From: a virus
Lineage: Duplodnaviria; Heunggongvirae; Uroviricota; Caudoviricetes
Virus record (IMG/VR): IMGVR_UViG_2547132281_000001
Strand: one strand, 5' to 3'
Length of the DNA stretch: 14,982 nt
The notes under the pieces were generated by a model. The model did not search any database, was not told the DNA's origin, and saw only the letters and a list, made by a program, of their open reading frames with translations. Of the stretch, positions 32 to 14,233 are shown in pieces; the stretch's first letter is position 1; every line of letters starts with the position of its first letter. Both the position numbers and the translations under genes were made by a program.

Positions 32-223
32 TTAAAGACCTGCCGGGATTTCGTTATTATCCTGGTGAATAACTTTATCGACCGGGTAACAGTTACCGGG
101 AATTTTCTGTTCGGTTGCTGCAGTCACACACTCCTGCATTGTCCTGTGAACACTGACTGCAATATCAACTGGCTCTCCGGAAACAAGAAAAACTGTCAGA
201 ACAAGTGCAAATGCTGTATTCAT
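32..223 (-). CDS. ydfD: YdfD-like small lysis protein (63 aa; internal Met of the 81-aa track ORF)
   Basis: Translation MNTAFALVLTVFLVSGEPVDIAVSVHRTMQECVTAATEQKIPGNCYPVDKVIHQDNNEIPAGL matches my recollection of Qin YdfD. Start overlaps dicB stop as ATGA. Synteny dicB-ydfD. Confidence 0.75.
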   Translation of the reverse strand: MNTAFALVLTVFLVSGEPVDIAVSVHRTMQECVTAATEQKIPGNCYPVDKVIHQDNNEIPAGL

Positions 224-408
224 TGCCAGCATCCTTTTTGTATCGGACGTAAACGGGCCAACATTGAAAGAATGCATATTTTATTTAATAGCTCCCGTTC
301 GTGTTTTCTCTTGTTAATGGCATCTTCAGTAAATACAGGGTTACTGATAGTGACACCAATTTCAAAACAACCTTCAGACGTATTAACGTTTGGTAATAAC
401 GTTTCCAT
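220..408 (-). CDS. dicB: DicB cell-division inhibitor (62 aa)
   Basis: Internal Met of track ORF 220..513 gives METLLPNVNTSEGCFEIGVTISNPVFTEDAINKRKHERELLNKICILSMLARLRPIQKGCWQ, near-identical to recalled K-12 DicB. SD GAGGA upstream on minus strand. Lies downstream of DicF. Confidence 0.85.
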   Translation of the reverse strand: METLLPNVNTSEGCFEIGVTISNPVFTEDAINKRKHERELLNKICILSMLARLRPIQKGCWQ

Positions 409-577
409 TATCGCGTCCTCAACAATGAATTTTGTGATGCGGTGCCTGGTGCCTCCAGGTGACGTTAACCAGTTAACAATTAACGCCGGATACAGAGAAT
501 CCACCCATAACACTGTTTTTGGTTTTAACTGTTCCGCGTGCGCTCAGCCGCATTCACCGCATCACAAAATTCACTTT

Positions 578-635
578 AAAAAGGGCGGCAGAGCAGTCAC
601 GGAGTAAAACTGATACCGCCAAACGTCACCAGAAA
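578..635 (-). ncRNA. dicF: DicF small RNA (ftsZ/manX-targeting sRNA of the dicB operon)
   Basis: Reverse complement of 578..635 reads TTTCTGGTGACGTTTGGCGGTATCAGTTTTACTCCGTGACTGCTCTGCCGCCCTTTTT, which matches the DicF sequence as I remember it, including the 3' GC stem and U-run. Positioned between ydfC and dicB as in Qin. Confidence 0.85.
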
Positions 636-947
636 ATTGATAACAGAGGGCGTTGCAGCGGGGTTGTCACTTAAGCGTATGGTCAACCTGACAACCCGGT
701 GTCCTCAACGGGGGAAGGAATAACCCCGCCATACTTACCGCCGCACCATTTCGCGGATTGCCACAACCGGAAGCGCACGGTCGACGAAAATTTAACGACA
801 GGCTATCTATGAACCAGCTACCTCGCCGTGCGCTTTCGCGTTATGGTCTGACTTTGCAGGGAAATATCCTTTCAGTAAACTGTCTGTGCCGGATGCTCAC
901 CCGTGGAGAACTCCTTACTTACCAACCTTAGCTTCGTTGGTTAGCTA

Positions 948-1166
948 TTAACGCGGGTATGTAATCATTCTGGCAATGCTTAATGCCGCTGCTTTTTCCA
1001 GATTAGTGATATCCTGCTCCAGAGCGGACAGATTTTCAGCCTGCTTAGCTCTGGCTTCATTAGCCCATTTCAGATCCTGCGCTGCATTAATTTTCTGGCG
1101 CATCCACTCATAAAGTTCATCATCGGTATAGTCTGGCGCGATGATGACGGGTTCTCGTTTCTGCAT
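948..1166 (-). CDS. ydfC: YdfC-like protein (72 aa)
   Basis: Track ORF MQKREPVIIAPDYTDDELYEWMRQKINAAQDLKWANEARAKQAENLSALEQDITNLEKAAALSIARMITYPR. Size and position as for ydfC in the dicB operon. Confidence 0.75.
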   Translation of the reverse strand: MQKREPVIIAPDYTDDELYEWMRQKINAAQDLKWANEARAKQAENLSALEQDITNLEKAAALSIARMITYPR

Positions 1167-1195
1167 ACTGATTCCTCGCGGTGCTGTTTCGCTTA

Positions 1196-1324
1196 TCAGC
1201 CGTTAGATTTTGCCGAACTGGAAAGCGCCTGTTTAAATTCGTTGAAGCTGTGAGCTTCTTCGCCTTCGGCAAGGCCTTCGAAGTATTCTTCGTAAGCCTT
1301 TTCCATGATTTTGTCAAAATCCAT
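1196..1324 (-). CDS. ydfB: YdfB-like small protein (42 aa)
   Basis: Hand translation of minus strand gives MDFDKIMEKAYEEYFEGLAEGEEAHSFNEFKQALSSSAKSNG. Start lies 1 nt after ydfA stop (TGATATG). Below the track length cut-off. Confidence 0.7.
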   Translation of the reverse strand: MDFDKIMEKAYEEYFEGLAEGEEAHSFNEFKQALSSSAKSNG

Positions 1325-1325
1325 A

Positions 1326-1481
1326 TCACTCACCTGAGTTTCTTTCCAGCCAGCGACGGGCACCATTTTCGGTTTTAAACGTTTTGCTTTTGGTATACGT
1401 CATCGCGGTGAACGTACCGTCCTGGTTGGGGAACACGCCACATACCAGAGATTCGCTGTTGCCAAGATCGATAGTATCCAT
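1326..1481 (-). CDS. ydfA: YdfA-like protein (51 aa; internal Met of track ORF 1326..1535)
   Basis: MDTIDLGNSESLVCGVFPNQDGTFTAMTYTKSKTFKTENGARRWLERNSGE with SD AAGGGGA upstream on minus strand. First gene of the dicB operon downstream of dicA. Confidence 0.75.
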   Translation of the reverse strand: MDTIDLGNSESLVCGVFPNQDGTFTAMTYTKSKTFKTENGARRWLERNSGE

Positions 1482-1561
1482 GCTGACCTCATTTCCCCTT
1501 AACGCTGGGGTAGCGGAACAGTTTGCTGAGAACACCGTGCGGTGTGTTGATGCAAATAAGA

Positions 1562-1612
1562 TTAGCTATGGCTAACATATAGGTCAAGTGATATTGTATG
1601 TTATAGCTAACA
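1562..1612. promoter_or_regulatory. Putative DicA operator pair and dicB-operon promoter region between dicA stop and ydfA
   Basis: TTAGCTATGGCTAA (1562-1575) and TGTTATAGCTAACA (1599-1612) share TGTTA/TAACA or TTAGC/GCTAA half-sites with the palindromes in the dicA-dicC intergenic region. Confidence 0.45.
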
Positions 1613-1647
1613 TGATTGATGTGGTAAAAGATAACTCATTGATGATG

Positions 1648-2055
1648 TTATCTTTTATTTGTCCGCTGACGGGCTTTTAGTAATTCTTCAAAGAGTTTAT
1701 TGAAGTTTTTTACTCGAGCTCGCATTTCGGCGAGCTGGGTATCCTGTTCTGATTCTGGCAGTGCATTAAACAGCTCAAGGAGCTCTAGTTCTTTGGGGGA
1801 TAAGGCAACTGGCTTCTCAACAGGTGGTGTTGGTTGCTTGTCTTCATCGCCAAATAGAATCCATGTTGGTGAGCATTGCAATACTTTGCTGAGGGCAAAA
1901 AGGTTCTTCCCTGTAGGTTCACTATCATCCCGTTCCCATTGTGATACAGACACATGGGAGATTTTCAGGGCTTTAGCAAGAGACCTTTGGGTGTGTTTGA
2001 GGTTTTTCCGACGATACCTAATGCGTTCGCCGATAGTTAAATTTTTTGTTTCCAT
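1648..2055 (-). CDS. dicA: DicA, XRE-family HTH repressor (CI-like immunity repressor)
   Basis: 135-aa track ORF METKNLTIGERIRYRRKNLKHTQRSLAKALKISHVSVSQWERDDSEPTGKNLF... matches recalled K-12 DicA essentially throughout. Divergent from dicC. Confidence 0.9.
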   Translation of the reverse strand: METKNLTIGERIRYRRKNLKHTQRSLAKALKISHVSVSQWERDDSEPTGKNLFALSKVLQCSPTWILFGDEDKQPTPPVEKPVALSPKELELLELFNALPESEQDTQLAEMRARVKNFNKLFEELLKARQRTNKR

Positions 2056-2057
2056 AG

Positions 2058-2123
2058 TTAGCTAATGCTAAATCGTATTGACTATGTTTTTGTTAACATC
2101 TATTTTGTTAGTCATGACTAACA
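2058..2123. promoter_or_regulatory. dicA/dicC divergent promoter-operator region
   Basis: Perfect 18-bp palindrome TGTTAGTCATGACTAACA (2106-2123) 16 nt before the dicC ATG. TGTTAACA (2091-2098). TTAGCTAATGCTAA (2058-2071) abutting the dicA start. Confidence 0.55.
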
Positions 2124-2138
2124 ATAAAGGTGTTTTAA

Positions 2139-2369
2139 ATGCTTAAAACTGACGCTCTTTTGTATTTCGGTTCAAAAACAAAACTTGCACAAGCAGCAGG
2201 TATTCGTTTGGCTTCGCTTTATAGCTGGAAAGGGGATTTAGTTCCCGAAGGTCGCGCGATGCGTCTACAGGAGGCATCTGGCGGGGAGCTTCAGTATGAT
2301 CCCAAAGTTTATGATGAATATCGTAAGACGAAGCGGGCGGGGCGGTTGAACAATGAAAATCACTCCTGA
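2139..2369 (+). CDS. dicC: DicC, Cro-like regulator (76 aa)
   Basis: Track ORF MLKTDALLYFGSKTKLAQAAGIRLASLYSWKGDLVPEGRAMRLQEASGGELQYDPKVYDEYRKTKRAGRLNNENHS matches recalled DicC. SD AAAGGTG upstream. Confidence 0.85.
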   Translation: MLKTDALLYFGSKTKLAQAAGIRLASLYSWKGDLVPEGRAMRLQEASGGELQYDPKVYDEYRKTKRAGRLNNENHS

Positions 2370-2874
2370 ACAGGCTCGTGAGGCTCTGGATGCCTGGATA
2401 TGTCGACCAGGAATGACACAGGAGCAGGCGACGATATTAATCACTGAAGCATTCTGGGCTTTGAAAGAGCGCCCGAACATCGATGTTCAGCGTGTCACAG
2501 ATGAAGGTGGCGCGGTTGATCAGCGAGCGCTTGGCGTTAATCGAGTGAAGATATTCGAACGCTGGAAGGCTATCGACACCAGGGATAAGCGTGAAAAGTT
2601 CACGGCGCTAGTGCCTGCGATTATGGAGGCTATCCGGATTAGTGATTTCAGGTTGTATCGTGAGATCAGTGATGGAAAAAGTATTACGTACATGATCGCC
2701 GGGTTAAATAAAGAATATGGCGATGTGGTGGAATCCGGACTGCTTTTTGCAGATCCTGCCGTTGTAGATCGTGAAACTGACGAACTTATAGAAAAAGCAA
2801 TTGCTTTCAAGCTTGCGTATCGACAGCAATACCAACAAAAAGCTGGATGGAATTATGAGTCTTCTTTTTGCTGA
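2353..2874 (+). CDS. Hypothetical phage early protein (173 aa)
   Basis: Long ORF directly after dicC, overlapping its stop by 17 nt, co-oriented with replication genes. No family recognised from sequence alone. Confidence 0.55.
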   Translation: MKITPEQAREALDAWICRPGMTQEQATILITEAFWALKERPNIDVQRVTDEGGAVDQRALGVNRVKIFERWKAIDTRDKREKFTALVPAIMEAIRISDFRLYREISDGKSITYMIAGLNKEYGDVVESGLLFADPAVVDRETDELIEKAIAFKLAYRQQYQQKAGWNYESSFC

Positions 2875-3820
2875 ACGCCCACTGGTTATAAACACGCAGC
2901 TGGCAATGAAAATTGGCTTAAACGAAGCCATTGTTTTGCAACAACTGCACTACTGGTTGAGAGATACCAACTCCGGCATGGAATGTGATGGTGTTCGCTG
3001 GATTTATAACACAACGGAACAATGGCTGGAACAGTTCCCATTCTGGTCAGAGTCAACGTTAAAGCGCGCGTTTGCAAGTCTGAAAACGCTGGGGCTTTTG
3101 CGTTGTGAAAAGCTCAATAAATCAAAGCGCGATATGACCAATTTCTACACGATCAACTACGGGAGCGAGCTTTTAGATGGTGGCAAATTGAGCGAATCCA
3201 TCGGTTTAAAATGCGCCGCTCCATCAGGTCAAAATGACACGATGGAAGAGGTCAAAATGAAACGCTCCATTGGTTCAAAACGACTCAATGTCATCGGGTC
3301 AAAATGGCCTGATGATCTTACAGAGAATACAACAGAGATTACTACAGAGAATAAAAAGACTTCTCGTCCGGAAGCTTCGCAACCGGACCCGCAGACGGTT
3401 GAACAGGATTTTTTAACCCGACACCCTGACGCGGTTGTGTTCAGTGCGAAAAAACGCCAGTGGGGCAGCCAGGAAGATTTGGCGTGTGCGCAGTGGATCT
3501 GGGGGCGAATCGTGAGTCTTTACGAGCAGGCCGCCAGCGATGATGGCGAGATTTCGCGACCGAAAGAACCCAACTGGACCGCATGGGCCAACGACGTGCG
3601 CACAATGCGGATGCTGGATGGCAGAACTCACAGACAAATTTGTGAAATGTTTGGTCGGGTGCAGCGGGATCCATTCTGGGTAAAAAATATCATGAGTCCG
3701 TCAAAGCTTCGCGAAAAATGGGATGAACTGGTTATCCGCCTGGGGCGTTCGTCTGTACAGCGTTGTGTGAATCATATTTCTGAGCCGGATACCGAAATTC
3801 CGCCGGGCTTCAGGGGGTAA
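2855..3820 (+). CDS. Phage replication initiation protein: replisome-organizer-like N-terminus with DnaT-like (primosomal protein I) C-terminus
   Basis: ATG at 2855 preferred over the track's TTG at 2801 (the 2801 start would overlap the preceding ORF by 74 nt). C-terminus ...NHISEPDTEIPPGFRG closely resembles the recalled E. coli DnaT C-terminus ...SEPDSQIPPGFRG. Sits in the lambdoid O/P slot. Confidence 0.7.
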   Translation: MSLLFAERPLVINTQLAMKIGLNEAIVLQQLHYWLRDTNSGMECDGVRWIYNTTEQWLEQFPFWSESTLKRAFASLKTLGLLRCEKLNKSKRDMTNFYTINYGSELLDGGKLSESIGLKCAAPSGQNDTMEEVKMKRSIGSKRLNVIGSKWPDDLTENTTEITTENKKTSRPEASQPDPQTVEQDFLTRHPDAVVFSAKKRQWGSQEDLACAQWIWGRIVSLYEQAASDDGEISRPKEPNWTAWANDVRTMRMLDGRTHRQICEMFGRVQRDPFWVKNIMSPSKLREKWDELVIRLGRSSVQRCVNHISEPDTEIPPGFRG

Positions 3821-3860
3821 GTGTTAATTTCTGGTCATGAGGTAATTTTCAGGAGGGCTT

Positions 3861-4283
3861 GTGGCAAAAGTTTTTACACAAGAAGAGCGGGAAAAAATTA
3901 AAGGGCAGGTTGTTGAACTCGTACGCCTGAGTGGGCGCGAGACGTTACGACAACTGGAAACTAAAACTGGGGCAACAAGATATCTGATGAGCGTTCTGGC
4001 CAGAGAGCTGGTTGCCAGTGGCGATGTATACAACTCTGGTTACGGGTTATTCCCGTCTGAACAGGCGCGTAAGGACTGGCAAAATGCCCGTAAAAAGCTC
4101 TCAAGGGCAAAGCCGAAGAAACCATCTGCGGTTGATCCGGACCTTATCTGGTCATTACCAGACGGAGAAATACGCCGCTACGACAGGCGCCTGAATATAA
4201 TCTGTCGCGAGTGCCGGAAGAGCGAAGCTATGCAGCGTGTACTGGCTTTCTATCAGGGTAATTTTCAGGAGGCGGTACTGTGA
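3861..4283 (+). CDS. Hypothetical protein (140 aa), GTG start
   Basis: SD AGGAGG at 3851-3856 then GTG at 3861. Basic C-terminal half with a CRECRK motif. Function not recognised. Confidence 0.55.
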   Translation: MAKVFTQEEREKIKGQVVELVRLSGRETLRQLETKTGATRYLMSVLARELVASGDVYNSGYGLFPSEQARKDWQNARKKLSRAKPKKPSAVDPDLIWSLPDGEIRRYDRRLNIICRECRKSEAMQRVLAFYQGNFQEAVL

Positions 4284-4402
4284 GTGAAATTAGCTATCAG
4301 GCTTCAATTGCCGCTGGCATTCGCATCAAAGGAGAGGAGCATGGAAATAAAACCAGAGGATTAGTTAAGCAATATCGTTTTATTTCCGATAAAAGAGGAT
4401 GA
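4280..4402 (+). CDS. Possible small ORF (40 aa), GTG start
   Basis: Second copy of GGTAATTTTCAGGAGG lies 7 nt before GTG 4280. Hand translation VSEISYQASIAAGIRIKGEEHGNKTRGLVKQYRFISDKRG. Overlaps the stop of the previous gene. Speculative. Confidence 0.25.
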   Translation: MSEISYQASIAAGIRIKGEEHGNKTRGLVKQYRFISDKRG

Positions 4403-4793
4403 CCCTCGTAATCAGGTTAATTTTCTTTATGAGCCATCGGAAAGACCATATTGCCATCACGCTTCTGTCCGGGTTGACGAAAAAAAGTGCGTCAGGTCCG
4501 CTATAAAATCTGCGGTGCAGTTGTGGAGCCATTTGACTGGATGCTCTCTGTGGCGAAAAGAGAAACCAGACTGGCAGATGATGTAAGGCTCTTGCGCCAG
4601 GAGGAACGGGAAAGGCGAAAAAAATACAGAAAAGCTAATTCAGATTGAGCGTAACGGGAAAGCGCGGATACGCAGGGTGACAAAATCCAGAACTGAATAA
4701 TTAAATTTAGCACTGTTAAAAATTTAATCCTTAACCGGAGGGATTTCTGCACCCTCAGAACATCAGGAGGCCGCCCGAAAGGGCGGTAGTTAA

Positions 4794-4928
4794 ATGCGAA
4801 AGTTTAAAATAATTATTGAAACGGGAATAGCCGGTGGAGATTTCGAGGATGAATTCGAAGTGGATAATGATGCGACGCCTGATGAAATACATGACGAAGC
4901 AAAAGATATTTTCTTTAACTACTGCAAT
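4794..4928 (+). pseudogene. ORF truncated after codon 45 by the IS1 insertion
   Basis: Track ORF 4794..5009 is native only to ...DIFFNYCN; from 4929 the reading frame runs into the IS1 terminal repeat. Acidic N-terminus MRKFKIIIETGIAGGDFEDEFEVDNDATPDEIHDEAKDIFFNYCN. Confidence 0.45.
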
Positions 4929-4943
4929 GGTAATGACTCCAAC

Positions 4944-5447
4944 TTATTGATAGTGTTTTATGTTCAGATAATGCCCGATGACTTTGTCATGCAGCTCCAC
5001 CGATTTTGAGAACGACAGCGACTTCCGTCCCAGCCGTGCCAGGTGCTGCCTCAGATTCAGGTTATGCCGCTCAATTCGCTGCGTATATCGCTTGCTGATT
5101 ACGTGCAGCTTTCCCTTCAGGCGGGATTCATACAGCGGCCAGCCATCCGTCATCCATATCACCACGTCAAAGGGTGACAGCAGGCTCATAAGACGCCCCA
5201 GCGTCGCCATCGTGCGTTCACCGAATACGTGCGCAACAACCGTCTTCCGGAGCCTGTCATACGAGTAAAACAGCCAGCGCTGGCGCGATTTAGCCCCGAC
5301 ATAGCCCCACTGTTCGTCCATTTCCGCGCAGACGATGACGTCACTGCCCGGCTGTATGCGCGAGGTTACCGACTGCGGCCTGAGTTTTTTAAGTGACGTA
5401 AAATCGTGTTGAGGCCAACGCCCATAATGCGGGCAGTTGTCCGGCAT
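4944..5447 (-). CDS. insB: IS1 InsB reading frame (transposase C-terminal part, expressed as InsAB' by frameshift)
   Basis: 167-aa track [61 protein letters not shown]... is canonical IS1 InsB. Confidence 0.95.
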
Positions 5448-5641
5448 CCAACGCCATTCATGGCCATATCAATGATTTTCTGGTGCGTACCGGGTTGAGA
5501 AGCGGTGTAAGTGAACTGCAGTTGCCATGTTTTACGGCAGTGAGAGCAGAGATAGCGCTGATGTCCGGCGGTGCTTTTGCCGTTACGCACCCCCCCGTCA
5601 GTAGCTGAACAGGAGGGACAGCTGATAGAAACAGAAGCCAC
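5366..5641 (-). CDS. insA: IS1 InsA (91 aa)
   Basis: Track [94 protein letters not shown] is canonical InsA. Confidence 0.95.
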
Positions 5642-5818
5642 TGGAGCACCTCAAAAACACCATCATACACTAAATCAGTAAGTTGGCAGCATCACCGAAT
5701 ATTTAGACTAAAGAGTTTGTAACGCTATGTAAGTGATTTTTTCTGGTTTAGATATTTATATGTCCGGCCAAATTGAGGTGTGTTTAAATGTAATTGCACA
5801 TTGATTGTAGGAGGAATA

Positions 5819-5998
5819 ATGAAAAACGCATTGCAGTTTTTGTTTGTTGCGTTCTGGTTGTTCGTATCATGTATGCCCATCATCTTCACAGCAAGGTATA
5901 TAGAAAAAGTTGATGTTTTGATATTAATATTTGGATATATAAATGCCCTTTTTTTAGGGGTGTTCATGGCGGTCATGTGCATTGAATACTGGCGGTAA
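5819..5998 (+). CDS. Small hydrophobic protein (59 aa, two predicted TM helices)
   Basis: Strong SD AGGAGG 6 nt before ATG 5819. MKNALQFLFVAFWLFVSCMPIIFTARYIEKVDVLILIFGYINALFLGVFMAVMCIEYWR. Visibly AT-rich context. Confidence 0.5.
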   Translation: MKNALQFLFVAFWLFVSCMPIIFTARYIEKVDVLILIFGYINALFLGVFMAVMCIEYWR

Positions 5999-6256
5999 AT
6001 ACAGCGAACGCCATTGGTTTAGTTGGATATTTACTGTGCCGGACAAAAACGGTTTGCGGGGAAATCTTAGTTAAATAGAATGACTGCGGGTGCTTGAGGC
6101 TATCTGTCTCAGGCATGAACACCAAAAGGCAGATAGAGAAAAGCCCCAGTTAACATTACGCGTCCTGCAAGACGCTTAACATTAATCTGAGGCCATATCT
6201 ATGCGACACATAGAGATTAGCCTCTTACGGACCGAAAGGTCAAGGAGAAGCAGGCT

Positions 6257-6391
6257 ATGAAGCAGCAAAAGGCGATGTTAATCGCCCTGATCGTCATCTG
6301 TTTAACCGTCATAGTGACGGCACTGGTAACGAGGAAAGACCTCTGCGAGGTGGAGGTCGCTGTCTTCACAGCTTACGAACCTGAGGAGTAA
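6257..6391 (+). CDS. hokD: Hok-family membrane toxin, HokD/RelF-like but 44 aa
   Basis: MKQQKAMLIALIVICLTVIVTALVTRKDLCEVEVAVFTAYEPEE. N-terminal 31 and C-terminal 13 residues match recalled HokD. SD AAGGAGAAG upstream. A 19-codon upstream ORF ends in ATGA overlap with the start. Confidence 0.8.
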   Translation: MKQQKAMLIALIVICLTVIVTALVTRKDLCEVEVAVFTAYEPEE

Positions 6392-6461
6392 AAGACCTGG
6401 CGAGGGAGAAATCCCTCGCCACCTCTGATGTGGCAGGCATCCTCAACGCACCCGCACTTAA

Positions 6462-6486
6462 CCCGCTTCGGCGGGTTTTTGTTTTT
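6462..6486 (+). terminator. Rho-independent terminator after hok
   Basis: Hairpin CCCGC-TTCG-GCGGG followed by TTTTTGTTTTT. Preceded by a second hairpin CGAGGGA-GAAA-TCCCTCG around 6400-6418. Confidence 0.6.
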
Positions 6487-6607
6487 ATTTTCAACGCATT
6501 TGAAGTTCTGGACGGTGCCGGAATAGAATCAAAAATACTTAAGTAGCGCGCAGGGATAAGAGGGATGGTCCCTTAAAGGGGAGAGCTAATTATCCGGAAG
6601 GATTCTG

Positions 6608-6859
6608 ATGATGAACAGCGAAGAACTGAGTAAAATTTTTTGTGAAGATGGCCTCTATGCTGTGTGCGTTGAAAATGGAAATATTGTTAGTCATTACCGC
6701 ATTGTGTGTTTGCAAAAAAATGGGGCTGCGTTAATTAATTTTGTGGATGCCCGAGTGACGGACGGATTTATCTTGCGCGACGGTGAGTTTGTCACTTCAT
6801 TACAGGCATTGAAAGAGATCGGAATAAAAGCTGGCTTTTCTGCTTTTTCAGAAGAATAA
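6608..6859 (+). CDS. Hypothetical 83-aa protein (same length and position as rem in Qin)
   Basis: SD GGAAGGA before ATG. MMNSEELSKIFCEDGLYAVCVENGNIVSHYRIVCLQKNGAALINFVDARVTDGFILRDGEFVTSLQALKEIGIKAGFSAFSEE. Identification rests on synteny and length only. Confidence 0.5.
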   Translation: MMNSEELSKIFCEDGLYAVCVENGNIVSHYRIVCLQKNGAALINFVDARVTDGFILRDGEFVTSLQALKEIGIKAGFSAFSEE

Positions 6860-6925
6860 ACTCATCTACAATCTTGCGCGGGGCTGAACTCCCGCTGAGT
6901 AACACCGTGCCACCGGAGAAAACCG

Positions 6926-7204
6926 ATGGCGCACGATACCAAATTACACAATTCTGATGATTCTGCCGTCTTTGCCAGCAGGCACGGGCGGCGTTCCCGC
7001 ACTTTCAAATCTGACTGGTACCAGCATCCCCCATGTACTGAAGAACAAGCTGAATGGCTAATTCAGTGCTACCGCAGACACGGATACGAGATTAAGAAAG
7101 CCCTCAGCCTCGATTATCGTCACTGGATAATCTCCGTCAGGCTTCCTTACTCTGAACGCCCACCGCGTCCGTCCCGCACATTCCAGCAACGCATCTGGAG
7201 GTAA
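6926..7204 (+). CDS. Hypothetical protein (92 aa)
   Basis: SD GGAGAAAA before ATG 6926. Stop abuts the GTG start of the ydfU-like gene. No family recognised. Confidence 0.45.
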   Translation: MAHDTKLHNSDDSAVFASRHGRRSRTFKSDWYQHPPCTEEQAEWLIQCYRRHGYEIKKALSLDYRHWIISVRLPYSERPPRPSRTFQQRIWR

Positions 7205-7205
7205 C

Positions 7206-8255
7206 GTGCGGGTATTACTTCGACCTGTTCTGGTACCGGAACTCGGGCTGGTGATCGTTAAGCCGGGCCGTGAATCCATGCCGGTATTCCACAATACCCG
7301 GGTACTGGTGGAGCCGGAACCGAAAAGCATGCGTAATCTGCCGTCCGGGGTCGTTCCTGCCGTTCGCCAGCCGCTGGTGGAAGACAAAACATTGCTGCCG
7401 TTTTTCAGTAACGCACGGGTGATTCGTGCTGCTGGTGGTGCTGGTGCATTGTCTGACTGGCTGTTGCGCCATATTAAATCCTGCCAGTGGCCACACGGCG
7501 ATTATCACCACAGTGAAACCGTCATTCACCGTTATGGTACCGGCGCAATGGTGTTGTGCTGGCACTGCGACAACCAGTTGCGTGACCAGACCTCCGAATC
7601 ACTTGAGCAACTTGCTCACCAAAACTTGTCAGCATGGATGATTGACGTCATTCGTCACGCAATGAATGGCACACAGGAGCGGGAATTATCTCTGGCTGAA
7701 TTATCCTGGTGGGCGGTCCGCAATCAGGTGGCGGACGCGCTACCGGAAGCGGTATTACGTCGTTCGCTGGGGTTGCGTGCGGAAAAAATCCGCTCAATGT
7801 ACCGTGAAAGCGACATCGTACCGGGAGAGCAGACCGCCACCAGCATACTGAAACAGCGCACAAAAAATCTTGCGCCGCTGCCTCACGCCCACCAGCAACA
7901 GAACCCACCACAGGAAAAGACGGTGGTCAGCATTGCCGTTGATCCTGAGTCTCCGGAATCTTTCATGAAACGACCTAAACGTCGCCGCTGGGTTAACGAG
8001 AAATATACACGCTGGGTGAAGACACAGCCGTGTGCGTGTTGTGGTAAGCCAGCCGACGATCCCCATCACCTGATTGGTCATGGTCAGGGCGGAATGGGGA
8101 CAAAATCTCACGATATTTTCACGCTACCGCTGTGTCGGGAGCATCACAACGAGCTTCATGCGGATCCGCTGGCGTTCGAAGAAAAGCATGGTTCTCAGGT
8201 TGATTTAATTTTTCGTTTTCTTGATCACGCCTTTGCAACTGGCGTGCTTGGGTAA
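7206..8255 (+). CDS. ydfU: YdfU-like DUF968 protein with C-terminal Cys/His (HNH-like) motif, GTG start
   Basis: 349 aa, same length as Qin YdfU. SD GGAGG before GTG 7206. C-terminus CACCGKPADDPHHLIGHGQGG...LCREHHNELH. Confidence 0.75.
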   Translation: MRVLLRPVLVPELGLVIVKPGRESMPVFHNTRVLVEPEPKSMRNLPSGVVPAVRQPLVEDKTLLPFFSNARVIRAAGGAGALSDWLLRHIKSCQWPHGDYHHSETVIHRYGTGAMVLCWHCDNQLRDQTSESLEQLAHQNLSAWMIDVIRHAMNGTQERELSLAELSWWAVRNQVADALPEAVLRRSLGLRAEKIRSMYRESDIVPGEQTATSILKQRTKNLAPLPHAHQQQNPPQEKTVVSIAVDPESPESFMKRPKRRRWVNEKYTRWVKTQPCACCGKPADDPHHLIGHGQGGMGTKSHDIFTLPLCREHHNELHADPLAFEEKHGSQVDLIFRFLDHAFATGVLG

Positions 8256-8267
8256 AAGAGGTGACTG

Positions 8268-8642
8268 ATGCTCATAGATTTGGTTTTACCTTACCCACCG
8301 ACGGTGAACACTTACTGGCGACGCCGTGGCAGCACATATTTTATCTCGGAGGAGGGAAAGCGTTATCGCCGGGCTGTGGCGCTTATTGTTCGCCAGCAGC
8401 GGCTGAAATTAAGCCTGTCCGGAAGGCTGGCGATAAAGGTGATTGCAGAGCCACCGGATAAGCGTCGTCGCGACCTGGACAATATCCTGAAAGCACCGCT
8501 GGATGCGCTGACGCATGCGGGAGTGTTAATGGACGATGAGCAGTTTGATGAAATCAATATCGTTCGTGGTCAGCCAGTATCTGGTGGACGTCTGGGGGTG
8601 AAGATTTACCCCATAATGCATGAAGAGCAGGTCAAAAAATGA
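8268..8642 (+). CDS. rusA: RusA-family Holliday junction resolvase
   Basis: 124 aa. SD AAGAGG upstream. Motifs ...PPDKRRRDLDNILKAPLDALTHAGVLMDDEQ... align with recalled E. coli RusA (...[23 protein letters not shown]...). Confidence 0.8.
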   Translation: MLIDLVLPYPPTVNTYWRRRGSTYFISEEGKRYRRAVALIVRQQRLKLSLSGRLAIKVIAEPPDKRRRDLDNILKAPLDALTHAGVLMDDEQFDEINIVRGQPVSGGRLGVKIYPIMHEEQVKK

Positions 8643-9460
8643 AACTGGAAGATTTACCGAAATACTACTCCCCAAAATCCCCTTGCCTGACCGATGCATC
8701 GGCCTCAACGTCAAAAGATGCGCTGAGTATCACTGATGTGATGGCCGCGCAGGGCATGACACAGAATCGGGCTGAGATGGGGTTTTCTGCGTTCCTGGGG
8801 AAAATGGGCATCAGTATGAATGACAGGGCGCGGGCAACAGAATTACTGGCAGATTATGCACTCAGTCGGTGCGATCGTGTGGCGGCGTTGAGAAAACTTC
8901 CGGCAGAAATAAAACCGGTAGTGATGCGCATTATGGCTTCGTACGCTTTTGAGGATTATGCCCGCAGCGCAGCGAGTAAAAAGCAGTGCCCTTGTTGCTA
9001 TGGGGAAAAATTTATTGAAAGCGTAGTTTTTACAAACAAGGTCCAGTATCCGGATGGTAAGCCGCCGGTATGGGCAAAGTGTACGAAAGGTGTGTATCCG
9101 TCTTACTGGGAAGAATGGAAAAAAGTCAGGGAGGTGGTAAAAGTTGCCTGTCCGGAGTGTGGCGGAAAGGGTGAGGTTTCCACCGCCTGTAAGGATTGCC
9201 GTGGGCGTGGTGTCGCCATTCACCGTGAAGAGTCGGTAAAACGTGGTATGCCTGTTATCAGAGACTGCCAGCGTTGTGGTGGTCGTGGCTATGAAAGACT
9301 ACCATCAACGGAGGCATTTAATGCTATATGCGAGGTGACAAACCAGATAACACGCGCGTCATGGGAAAAAACAGTTAAGAAATTCTATGATGCGCTGGTG
9401 ACCCGGTTTGATATTGAAGAAGCATGGGCTGAGCGGCAGTTAAAAAAGGTAACTAGGTAA
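8639..9460 (+). CDS. Late-gene antiterminator Q (phage 21/QuuD-like, zinc-binding)
   Basis: 273 aa with several CxxC pairs (CPCCYG, CPECGGKG, CKDCRGRG, CQRCGGRG). Lies immediately upstream of a P_R'-like promoter and terminator and the lysis genes. ATGA overlap with rusA. Confidence 0.8.
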   Translation: MKLEDLPKYYSPKSPCLTDASASTSKDALSITDVMAAQGMTQNRAEMGFSAFLGKMGISMNDRARATELLADYALSRCDRVAALRKLPAEIKPVVMRIMASYAFEDYARSAASKKQCPCCYGEKFIESVVFTNKVQYPDGKPPVWAKCTKGVYPSYWEEWKKVREVVKVACPECGGKGEVSTACKDCRGRGVAIHREESVKRGMPVIRDCQRCGGRGYERLPSTEAFNAICEVTNQITRASWEKTVKKFYDALVTRFDIEEAWAERQLKKVTR

Positions 9461-9465
9461 CAAGG

Positions 9466-9493
9466 TTGATTTTTCCGGAATCTGTGGTAAATT
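9466..9493 (+). promoter_or_regulatory. Putative late promoter P_R' (with qut region)
   Basis: -35 TTGATT (9466-9471), 16-bp spacer, extended -10 TGgTAAATT (9485-9493). TAAATT is the -10 hexamer I recall for lambda P_R'. Confidence 0.45.
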
Positions 9494-9542
9494 CGTCATA
9501 ATGATGGGCTTTTTATGCCTGACGTTAGAAGAGTTTCTACAA

Positions 9543-9564
9543 CCCGCCGCCGAGCGGGTTTTTT
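9543..9564 (+). terminator. Rho-independent terminator (tR'-like) downstream of Q
   Basis: CCCGC-CGCCGA-GCGGG hairpin followed by TTTTTT. Confidence 0.6.
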
Positions 9565-9603
9565 ATTGCGGAATTAATTACGGACCGTTATTATTCTGCT
9601 CAC

Positions 9604-9679
9604 GGCCCTTTAGCTCAGTGGTGAGAGCGAGCGACTCATAATCGCCAGGTCGCTGGTTCAAATCCAGTACAGCGCGCCA
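9604..9679 (+). tRNA. tRNA-like sequence with CAU anticodon (Ile2/Met type) but non-pairing acceptor stem; possibly degenerate
   Basis: D arm (GCTC/GAGC), anticodon loop CTCATAA, T arm GCTGG-TTCAAAT-CCAGT and encoded 3' GCCA are all present. Acceptor 5' strand GGCCCTT pairs with 3' ACAGCGC at only 3 of 7 positions. Confidence 0.45.
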
Positions 9680-9816
9680 TATTCATTCTTCCAGATTCCT
9701 TCCGGCAGAGCCTTATACTGAAATATACTTGGCTCAGGATCTTGTTGAAAATATTATATGTTTGTCAAAAATAAAAGTTCTGTTAAGTATTGATTGAGTG
9801 TTTGTTATACCGTCTA

Positions 9817-10143
9817 ATGGTTTTTTCAGCATTAAATATTTATCATTCATATGGTGTGGGTAGAGTGAATATTGATGAGGCGTCGGGGTGTTTCATCCTT
9901 AGGCAGCGTATTGATATAGTCAATGCAGCACGAGCAAAGGCCTTCAGCCGTTTGACAGTTTTGTTTTGTACTCCTGATCGTCTTTCGGGAAGAGACGTTA
10001 TTATTCTGAATAGTGATGCTATACAGAGGGTTTGCGATGAGTTCATGGTTGCTAATTCAGAATTATTTGCTCTTGTTCAGGAGTACAACAGAATAGCCAG
10101 GACCTGTGGTATGGATGAACTTCGGATTACTCATCTGGGGTAG
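9817..10143 (+). CDS. Hypothetical ORF in AT-rich moron region (start uncertain)
   Basis: Track ORF 9790..10143 begins on TTG; first ATG is at 9817. No convincing SD and no family recognised. Confidence 0.3.
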   Translation: MVFSALNIYHSYGVGRVNIDEASGCFILRQRIDIVNAARAKAFSRLTVLFCTPDRLSGRDVIILNSDAIQRVCDEFMVANSELFALVQEYNRIARTCGMDELRITHLG

Positions 10144-10617
10144 ATACATATCTGGATTATCACCTGTTACGGTAAAAAGTTATTGCTTACTGTTTTTGTG
10201 AATGGCATTGCAGCAGCCGGATAATGTCAGTGCTGGCTGACGGTGTGCTGGTGGCGGGTGTGGTGGTTATTGCTTTCCCGTTGCTGAAAAAGAAAACGCC
10301 AGACTGTTAGCCGGGTATCAGTTAGCGGGAGAAATTTTTAAATACTTCACAATTCAGGCGGTTGACTGTTGTCTGGTTTGCGGGGAGTTTGTTAAAAGAA
10401 ACTGGCATGGTGAATCCCCCTGTGCGGAGGGGCAATCAGCGAGTAGGTATATGGGATAATCGCGGATTCAGGTGCTGGTACTGAATTCACCGGGAGGCAC
10501 CCGGCACCATGCACTTCAATAGATTCTCTCCACATTATGGATATTCTTTCAGAATATCCCACGCAGACTTTGTGTAAATGTTAACAAATGTGCGTTTTAT
10601 TTGATCTGATTCGCTGT

Positions 10618-10676: not shown

Positions 10677-11105
10677 ATGGGTTTTCGTAGCGCATCAATT
10701 CTTACGTTGATTATTAGTGGGATTATTATCGGGTGCACTGATGCTGTATCGACAAATTATCATGACCGTACATCATATTACTCCGATAAAGCAATAGAGA
10801 CACAGTATGTGAGTTCATCTGAACGTACTTCTGATGTTAGTGAGGATATCCGTCTGTATGCCCATCAAATCAAGAGCGCCATCGAAAAACAGTTCGGGGA
10901 TGCGAGTAAGTATTCAGGAAAAGAGTGTACACTGAGAATGCATATGGCCCCGAATGGCCTTCTACTGGAGGTTAAAAGAGAAAGTGGAGACCTCGATTTA
11001 TGTCGTGAAGCGATGAATGCGATAAAGAATGCTGATATACCTGCCCCCCCTTCGCCGGAAGTATATAAAGTATTTCAAAATGGGGTGCTGGATTTTAAAC
11101 CCTGA
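10677..11105 (+). CDS. Lipoprotein with TolA C-terminal domain (TolA domain III)-like mature region
   Basis: Signal peptide with lipobox (..IIIGC). Mature part YAHQIKSAIEKQFGDASKYSGKECTLRMHMAPNGLLLEVKRESGDLDLCREAMNAIKNADIPAPPSPEVYKVFQNGVLDFKP aligns along its length with recalled TolA C-terminus YAGQIKSAIESKFYDASSYAGKTCTLRIKLAPDGMLLDIKPEGGDPALCQAALAAAKLAKIPKPPSQAVYEVFKNAPLDFKP. Confidence 0.8.
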   Translation: MGFRSASILTLIISGIIIGCTDAVSTNYHDRTSYYSDKAIETQYVSSSERTSDVSEDIRLYAHQIKSAIEKQFGDASKYSGKECTLRMHMAPNGLLLEVKRESGDLDLCREAMNAIKNADIPAPPSPEVYKVFQNGVLDFKP

Positions 11106-11255: not shown

Positions 11256-11651
11256 GTGGGATTAAAGAAAATCGTTATGTTGACTTTTTGGGTCGGTTTT
11301 GTTGCGGGATGCACACCTTTACACCCTTCAGATTGCCACAAAACTACTGCTACAGGTAGTTGCAGTTCAGGACGCTGGGATGATCAGGATGAATGGGGGG
11401 CGCAAGCGCGGGGAATCAGAGCTGCAATTAATGCCAAACTTGATGAGCCGCATAACTGGAAAGGGAAAAAATGCAGGTTGCATATGGAATTCTCTCAGGA
11501 TGGCACGGCGTTAAAAATATCTACCAGTAACGGTGATAAAGCCTATTGCGAAGCGATAAAGTCCGCAGCTCATAAAGCCAAATTTCCGGCCTTCAACAAT
11601 CCGGAAGTCTACAGAGATTTTCAGAAATCTGGCTTTGACATGCGAGGTTAG
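11256..11651 (+). CDS. Second, divergent TolA domain III-like lipoprotein (paralog), GTG start
   Basis: Lipobox VAGC. Mature region KGKKCRLHMEFSQDGTALKISTSNGDKAYCEAIKSAAHKAKFPAFNNPEVYRDFQKSGFDMRG follows the same pattern as the first copy (conserved Cys pair, NPEVY, FQ). Confidence 0.7.
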   Translation: MGLKKIVMLTFWVGFVAGCTPLHPSDCHKTTATGSCSSGRWDDQDEWGAQARGIRAAINAKLDEPHNWKGKKCRLHMEFSQDGTALKISTSNGDKAYCEAIKSAAHKAKFPAFNNPEVYRDFQKSGFDMRG

Positions 11652-13458: not shown

Positions 13459-13818
13459 ATTAATATTAAATCGGATTATTTTTAGCGCTGAATGTGAAAT
13501 TTAAATAAAAAGGACTCTTCCATGAGTCAAAATCCTTGAAATCTTAAGGGTAAGATAAAAGGTCATTAGACAGAATGACACGTTTTATTAATAAATAAAG
13601 CTATTGTTTCATTCGTGTGTTTTTCTTTACAAAAGTAATCCTTGCTATGGTTGGTTAATCATGCGTTAATGGTGTTCTGGTTTGTTACAAAATTATCTGA
13701 AGCAGTCATTGTTATAATTTTATTATTTGTACCTCTTGAGATTTCCTTGTTGGTTTTTCTCTCTGATATTTTTTTTCGGACCATTCTGCCCAAGGGCTAA
13801 CTTCTTCAAAAGGTAATA

Positions 13819-14034
13819 ATGATGTCTAACAAAATGACTGGTTTAGTGAAATGGTTTAACCCTGAAAAAGGTTTTGGTTTCATCACGCCGAAAGATGGTA
13901 GCAAAGATGTGTTTGTGCATTTCTCAGCTATTCAGAGCAACGATTTCAAAACGTTAACTGAGAATCAGGAAGTCGAATTTGGTATTGAGAACGGACCTAA
14001 AGGCCCTGCAGCTGTTCATGTAGTGACACTTTGA
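13819..14034 (+). CDS. cspI: Cold-shock protein CspA family (CspI-like)
   Basis: [71 protein letters not shown]; RNP motifs KGFGFI and VFVHF present. Preceded by about 360 bp of AT-rich leader. Start could be the second ATG at 13822. Confidence 0.85.
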
Positions 14035-14044
14035 GGTAGAAAAT

Positions 14045-14233
14045 ATTACAAACCATATTCACTTTAGATGCCCGTGTTGCCATGGTTCTCAGTATAGAAC
14101 ATCATCTTTTGATGTTTCTGACAGAAATCCTTTCGGGGCAAAATGTATCTTTTGTAAATCAATGATGATTACATTTGATAATATTTCACAATACTTAAAT
14201 GTTAGCCATCTGTCGTTAGATTTAAGAAAGTGA
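14045..14233 (+). pseudogene. Zinc-ribbon-like small ORF lacking a canonical start codon
   Basis: Open frame ...RCPCCHGSQYRTSSFDVSDRNPFGAKCIFCKSMMITFDNISQYLNVSHLSLDLRK* with CxxC..CxxC. Between the upstream in-frame stop and the motif there is no ATG/GTG/TTG, only ATT at 14045 and 14057. Start coordinate is nominal. Confidence 0.35.

Follow-up and report, generated by a model that had tools for sequence, protein, structure and literature searches.

Downstream of the gene for the late antiterminator Q, a sequence of 14,982 nt (IMG/VR record IMGVR_UViG_2547132281_000001, Caudoviricetes; its whole length is called the window here) contains a short element that resembles a tRNA with a CAU anticodon and that carries the label tRNA-Met wherever the same junction has been annotated in complete Escherichia coli genomes. 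Is this element a working tRNA, and from which gene does it descend? In this work, we compared the element with the tRNA arrays of related prophages, analyzed its folding, and followed its distribution in sequenced genomes. The results point to a hybrid tRNA pseudogene, ileZ::argO, which would be the non-functional relic of a deletion between short repeats. We give this reading a probability of about 85%, and we infer with about the same confidence that the product is no working tRNA. As a class, it is a chimeric tRNA pseudogene whose parent genes, genomic slot and deletion mechanism are already known, and the fusion is ordinary gene decay.

The tRNA-like element and its genomic setting

The element was 76 nt long and occupied positions 9604-9679 of the plus strand (GGCCCTTTAGCTCAGTGGTGAGAGCGAGCGACTCATAATCGCCAGGTCGCTGGTTCAAATCCAGTACAGCGCGCCA). 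Its D, anticodon and T arms were intact (anticodon CAU, U33 kept) and a 3' GCCA was encoded. The one tRNA that ARAGORN called in the whole window was tRNA-Met(cat) at 9605-9679. RF00005, the tRNA model of Rfam, matched 9605-9676 with 47.2 bits (E=1.4e-7) and flagged non-standard pairing in the acceptor stem. Since the gathering score of RF00005 is 29, the element passed the family threshold and was well beyond chance. The 7-nt anticodon loop with U33, the T arm with GGTTCRAATCC and the 3' CCA were all present, and the T stem kept five pairs, one of which was now G49·U65. Thus, the near-complete cloverleaf with CAU and GCCA that the first-pass annotation had described was recovered by ARAGORN and in the RF00005 alignment as well as by inspection of the sequence. 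The features identified around the element were as follows.

583-634, minus strand: DicF sRNA (Rfam)
6088-6259, plus strand: hok/sok (hokD-type) toxin-antitoxin RNA (Rfam)
8639-9460, plus strand: late-gene antiterminator Q, 273 aa (PF03589 Antiterm, E=6.2e-55; 'antitermination protein' in the PGAP annotation of identical loci)
9466-9493, plus strand: possible PR'-type late promoter, TTGATT, 16-nt spacer, TAAATT (putative, read by eye)
9541-9568, plus strand: intrinsic terminator (tR'-like) 36 nt upstream of the element, with a 7-bp G+C-rich stem at 9541-9560 followed by the T run TTTTATTG (terminator scan)
9790-10143, plus strand: 117-aa ORF in an A+T-rich stretch after the tRNA relic, without Pfam match
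10376-10566, plus strand: STnc100 sRNA homologue, about 700 nt downstream of the tRNA relic (Rfam, 114 bits)
10677-11105 and 11256-11651, plus strand: two adjacent ORFs with a TolA C-terminal domain (PF06519; E=2e-23 and 1e-14), between the Q/tRNA region and the lysis genes
13664-14080, plus strand: cspA-type thermoregulator leader, cspI-like (Rfam)

The presence of DicF, hok/sok and the cspA-type leader identified the window as a Qin-like lambdoid prophage of E. coli. As a whole, the 15-kb window was a mosaic, and the best match in complete genomes covered 88% of it, short of full length. The element started 144 nt downstream of Q and just past the terminator. The candidate promoter at 9466-9493 was not called in a consensus promoter scan (8 of 12 matches, under threshold); its position between Q and the terminator fits the lambdoid late-promoter architecture. 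Transcription of the element, should it occur, would take place within the Q-dependent late transcript.

In the Stx2a phage Stx2a_F723, the same slot was occupied by ileZ, argN and argO, followed by stx2A, a layout that agreed with the earlier remark that Stx-type lambdoid phages carry tRNA genes at this site after Q. The element also lay where such arrays are found, that is, downstream of Q and the late terminator and upstream of late or moron genes. Three tRNA genes have been described in 933W-type and Stx2a phages (PMC4631060, PMC7946995), and the names ileZ, argN and argO used here follow the annotation of AP012533. The window shared the genomic slot and homologous component genes with the Stx2 phage array between Q and stx, but had neither an intact tRNA nor stx, and carried STnc100 and the TolA-domain ORFs downstream instead. 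The pair of TolA-domain ORFs looks like moron-type cargo; in some relatives these ORFs were frameshifted or interrupted by IS1. At the position of the 117-aa ORF, PGAP had no annotation in an identical locus, the nearest being an 87-nt DUF3927 ORF further downstream.

Parent genes and the putative deletion

The first 64 nt of the element (9604-9667) were identical to ileZ of phage mEp460_ev081 (L001 1705-1768) at 64 of 64 positions, including the whole anticodon arm, and the last 19 nt (9661-9679) were identical to the 3' end of argO in the same phage (L001 1939-1957). Downstream of 9679, the window continued as the flank of argO. The two runs overlapped in AATCCAG, which divides the element into three parts.

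9604-9660, plus strand: ileZ-only part, from the acceptor 5' strand through the D arm, the CAU anticodon arm and the variable loop to the 5' strand of the T stem and the beginning of the T loop, with the A at 9660 that is specific to ileZ; over 9604-9667 the element does not differ from ileZ of mEp460_ev081 or of E. coli strain 90-9281
9661-9667, plus strand: crossover interval AATCCAG, present in both the ileZ and the argO T arm, with the putative deletion endpoint somewhere inside these 7 nt
9668-9679, plus strand: argO-only part (last T-stem base U65, acceptor 3' strand ACAGCGC, discriminator G, CCA)

The Arg-tRNA-type terminus recognized in the first-pass annotation was therefore that of argO, a tRNA-Arg (UCU) gene. 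The hybrid resembled ileZ, a tRNA-Ile2 gene of the CAU/lysidine type found in Stx and other lambdoid phages, in the first 64 of its 76 nt and in the slot after Q and the late terminator, but its 3' T-stem base, acceptor 3' strand and discriminator came from argO. On the other hand, it shared with argO the last 19 nt and the entire downstream flank, and lacked everything 5' of the argO T loop, including the anticodon. Its sequence was not identical to any intact prophage tRNA.

Two relatives with intact genes were informative. Phage mEp460_ev081 was 98% identical to the window region and 177 bases longer; its order was an intact ileZ (acceptor GGCCCTT/AAGGGCC), a 100-nt decayed argN, and an intact argO ending in ...CTGGTTCGAATCCAGTACAGCGCGCCA. 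E. coli O128:H27 strain 90-9281 (L006) likewise had an intact ileZ, an argN remnant and an intact argO, which PGAP annotated as tRNA-Ile and tRNA-Arg. Compared with the window, this strain showed no difference over 1068 nt of the left flank and one SNP over 1033 nt of the right flank. Its extra 177 bases sat exactly between the two T-arm repeats, and the SNP was the sole other difference over 2.1 kb. One tRNA was called in the window, two in each of these relatives and three in locus L002; the window thus lacked the two or three separate intact tRNA genes of an array.

The T arms of ileZ (GGTCgCTGGTTCaAATCCAG) and argO (GGTCaCTGGTTCgAATCCAG) formed a 20-nt imperfect direct repeat with an offset of 177. 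This pair was the top-scoring direct repeat in the parental array of 90-9281 in a purpose-written ungapped scan, whereas an exact-seeded repeat search missed it because its exact seeds are just 7 nt long. Features expected of a deletion between direct repeats were found: the halves were identical to neighboring genes in intact relatives, the flanks were collinear, and the junction fell inside shared sequence. The two-part identity and the clean 177-bp difference from 90-9281 hence support the earlier suggestion that recombination between neighboring tRNA genes of a former array gave rise to the element as a chimeric or decayed copy.

We also noted that the argN remnant (L001 1781-1880; L006 7081-7180) matched Stx-phage argN at its two ends (CGCCATTAGCT... 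and ...GATGGCGGTCCA), with the middle replaced, and that it was called by neither ARAGORN nor Rfam. The argO gene of 90-9281 (L006 7181-7257) had a G-to-A change in the T stem (CACTAG for CACTGG) that broke one T-stem pair, and it was still annotated as tRNA-Arg. The broken pair is a further sign that these arrays are decaying.

Short direct repeats are a textbook cause of deletions. The ancestral prophage would have carried, after Q and the late terminator, an array of ileZ (tRNA-Ile2, CAU), an already decayed argN, and argO (tRNA-Arg, UCU). A deletion between the T-arm repeats of ileZ and argO, 177 bp apart and with its endpoint within the common AATCCAG, would then have eliminated 177 bp, comprising the ileZ 3' end, the remnant of argN, and argO as far as its T loop. 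The 5' acceptor strand of ileZ would thereby have come to stand opposite the 3' strand of argO, with which it could form no stable 7-bp acceptor helix. Such a deletion might have occurred by replication slippage or by short-homology recombination. The reciprocal duplication junction (argO 5' part and ileZ 3' part) was absent from the 5,426 complete E. coli genomes; slippage and unequal crossing-over are both compatible with the data, and this absence weakly favors slippage. In E. coli, short direct repeats and tandem tRNA genes are familiar sites of deletion and unequal recombination, as in the lacI deletion hotspots and the tandem copies of tyrT. There, as here, the interval between close short repeats is lost and one hybrid repeat is left; in the present case, however, the repeats belong to two tRNA identities and the product is a non-pairing chimera.

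Distribution of the junction and a second fusion

Junctions were counted with a 46-nt query of which neither parent has a 28-nt exact word, so that only true junctions can seed a match; an 81-nt junction-spanning query was unfit for counting hybrids, as pieces of intact arrays are joined in its matches. The ileZ::argO junction was present in 42 of the 5,426 complete E. coli genomes, with one chromosomal copy each and at least 99% identity over the query. Over 2.1 kb, the hybrid loci were 99.9-100% identical to the window, and the next-best matches were intact arrays that were 177 bp longer. About 2,900 of the complete genomes contained ileZ-type sequences, compared with 42 for the hybrid, which, judged from these sequences, is evidently a rare and derived form. 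The junction was also present in 2 IMG/VR contigs. It was not found among 50,697 deposited phage genomes or in an exact-pattern scan of GTDB (one genome per species).

A query representing an alternative crossover (G for A in the T loop) matched 190 genomes, of which 162 had a full-length hybrid and 28 had an ordinary ileZ allele bearing the G. The G-bearing allele (GGTTCGAATCC) occurred, for example, in E. coli H250-H255 (pig ETEC isolates), and makes the T arms of ileZ and argO identical over 15 nt. The second hybrid was thus present in 162 of the 5,426 complete genomes, which were STEC of serotypes O157:H7, O145, O111, O121, O45, O103 and others. It was located as follows.

2467-2542 of L007 (E. 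coli O157:H7 PV15-279) and 1167-1242 of L008, L009 and L010: second ileZ::argO hybrid, identical in sequence in the four genomes inspected

This STEC hybrid shared with the window element its parents, the T-arm repeat, the unpaired acceptor stem and the tRNA-Met label given by PGAP. It differed at three tRNA positions, namely 33 (U to G), 57 (G) and 69 (A, the Stx-type argO allele), and also in its flanks, which were of the Stx-phage type, in the size of the corresponding deletion (174 bp) and in its lower scores. RF00005 gave it 37.3 bits as a local match without acceptor stem, and ARAGORN did not call it. Given the G at position 57, the crossover falls within CTGGTTC; with a G57 allele in the parent ileZ, it could lie at any point of CTGGTTCGAATCCAG. 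In the STEC hybrid loci, STnc100 was found downstream too, followed by the anti-GcvB sRNA AgvB on the opposite strand.

To derive one hybrid from the other would require three substitutions that match lineage-specific parental alleles, so two independent ileZ::argO deletions are the simpler account. Independent fusion at the same repeat marks the site as a recurrent deletion hotspot. The two hybrids therefore offer a natural, datable case, with probably at least two events, of deletion between 7-20-nt repeats derived from the conserved T arms of adjacent tRNA genes, and the fusion junctions could act as lineage markers for these prophage modules. The loss of the universal U33 in the STEC hybrid is consistent with a lack of selection on such hybrids. 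In the lineage of the window there is no drift that would show lost constraint, because all 42 junctions were identical, with at least 99.9% identity over 2.1 kb.

Function and annotation of the hybrid

In the canonical register of the acceptor stem, GGCCCUU faced ACAGCGC as G-C, G·G, C·C, C-G, C·A, U·C and U-A, that is, 3 of 7 pairs, compared with 7 of 7 in both ileZ and argO. The count of three given by the first-pass annotation therefore holds for this register; ARAGORN and Rfam placed the 5' end at 9605, a shift of one base, and this register was better, with five Watson-Crick pairs alongside a C·C mismatch and a bulged C, but still did not amount to a proper stem. With the three arms held, the free energy was -14.5 kcal/mol, and adding the acceptor pairs changed it to -9.2 (canonical) or -12.5 kcal/mol (shifted), so the hybrid lacked the seven-base-pair stem of a canonical tRNA in both registers and each raised the fold energy. 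In ileZ, by comparison, the acceptor stem brought the cloverleaf down to about -29 kcal/mol. Under the arm constraints, the best closing helix of the hybrid was formed with the CCA end itself. The unconstrained fold was no better than that of shuffled sequence (z=-1.6), whereas ileZ had z=-4.0. It had been set beforehand that an alternative fold with a properly paired acceptor stem would speak against a chimeric or decayed gene; none of the alternative folds examined had such a stem.

The RF00005 score of the hybrid (47.2 bits) was 25 bits below that of ileZ (72.5) and 21 below that of argO (68). The discriminator was G73 instead of the A73 of ileZ, and C5 stood opposite A68. Regarded as a tRNA-Ile2, the element had CAU in an ileZ-type body, but neither the ileZ acceptor stem (GGCCCUU/AAGGGCC) nor A73. 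RNase P, EF-Tu, the aminoacyl-tRNA synthetases and TilS all rely on the acceptor helix and the discriminator; A73 and acceptor-stem pairs contribute to recognition by IleRS, MetRS and TilS, and in tRNA-Ile2 it is the pairs 4:69 and 5:68 together with A73 that contribute to recognition by TilS and IleRS. Taken with these requirements, the mispaired acceptor, the fold energies, the drop in score and the G discriminator suggest that the element is a non-functional relic.

Several other readings were weighed against this one. The element might be a working tRNA, as its RefSeq label tRNA-Met implies, with a 5' end at 9605 and an irregular 6-position acceptor helix, charged by MetRS or, if modified to lysidine, by IleRS. 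Both ARAGORN and RF00005 placed it above threshold, PGAP named it tRNA-Met in all 42 genomes with no pseudogene flag, it keeps sound D, anticodon and T arms as well as the CCA, and the shifted register offers five Watson-Crick pairs. Nevertheless, its body is 100% ileZ, which PGAP calls tRNA-Ile when intact, both acceptor registers are energetically unfavorable, the score lies 25 bits under the ileZ parent, G73 replaces A73, the PGAP gene spans just 71 nt (9609-9679) and omits the 5' acceptor strand, and the sister hybrid in STEC has lost U33. We therefore consider a working tRNA unlikely, and a genuine tRNA-Met in particular was rejected on account of the ileZ body, the failed acceptor stem and the G discriminator. 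A somewhat smaller chance still is given to the possibility that the deletion occurred as proposed and that the hybrid RNA, made from the Q-dependent late transcript, has been kept as a useful tRNA-like molecule in a non-decoding role, such as a processing or punctuation signal in late transcripts or a decoy for enzymes that modify or cleave tRNAs, or that the loss of the phage Ile and Arg tRNAs was itself advantageous. Either possibility would account for a fusion that has arisen twice and is still present in about 200 complete genomes (42 and 162), and tRNA-binding proteins could still bind the three intact arms. However, the sequences show no evidence of constraint (the window lineage is too young to tell, and the STEC lineage has U33G), both junctions are absent from the 50,697 deposited phage genomes, and persistence is also expected of a neutral lesion in prophages, all of which makes a retained function improbable.

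Two accounts of the junction itself can be set aside almost entirely. Integration into tRNA genes typically yields hybrids whose 3' end has been replaced, and integrases often target the T arm, where the break is located, so a mobile element integrated into ileZ might have brought the substitute 3' end. This is contradicted by the comparison with 90-9281: relative to that intact strain 177 bp were lost and no element was gained. Moreover, from the 3' part onward the sequence is identical to that of argO and the adjoining downstream flank in the same type of prophage, and no integrase gene is annotated beside the element in identical loci. Collapse of similar T arms during assembly is hardly more credible. 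A 15-20-nt near-repeat is indeed common to both parents, but a 20-nt imperfect repeat is far shorter than sequencing reads, and the artefact is contradicted by the recurrence of this junction in 42 complete genomes, obtained independently by different laboratories and from different sources, as well as in the 2 IMG/VR contigs, and by the distinct second junction type in 162 genomes. A relic of deletion between ileZ and argO thus accounts best for the junction.

If the element is such a relic, its annotation needs attention. All 42 junction copies were annotated as "tRNA-Met" by PGAP without a pseudogene flag, with a 71-nt gene equivalent to 9609-9679 that leaves out the 5' acceptor strand. The "Met" label appeared solely on the two hybrid types, while the same body was tRNA-Ile in PGAP when intact. 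By descent and similarity the element is no tRNA-Met, its body being identical to ileZ; since that body belongs to a tRNA-Ile when the gene is intact, "Met" seems to be a default based on the anticodon, which by itself confers no Met identity. A high-threshold tRNA caller by itself would not have flagged the problem with the hybrid. The literature covered, which gave general statements on the tRNA genes of Stx phages, contained no description of such hybrids and nowhere named ileZ among tRNA genes; an earlier mention is possible in the papers that first reported Stx-phage sequences, which lay outside this coverage. At least 204 complete RefSeq E. coli genomes (42 and 162) therefore list a "tRNA-Met" that is a fused ileZ/argO remnant and almost certainly dead. 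This mis-annotation swells the counts of tRNA-Met genes and masks the loss of the prophage tRNAs for AUA and AGA/AGG. With both ileZ and argO lost, the prophage would be left without tRNAs decoding these codons, which would have to be read by host tRNAs. In the neighboring prophage genes, AUA, AGA and AGG were used at 14, 7 and 4 per thousand codons, respectively.
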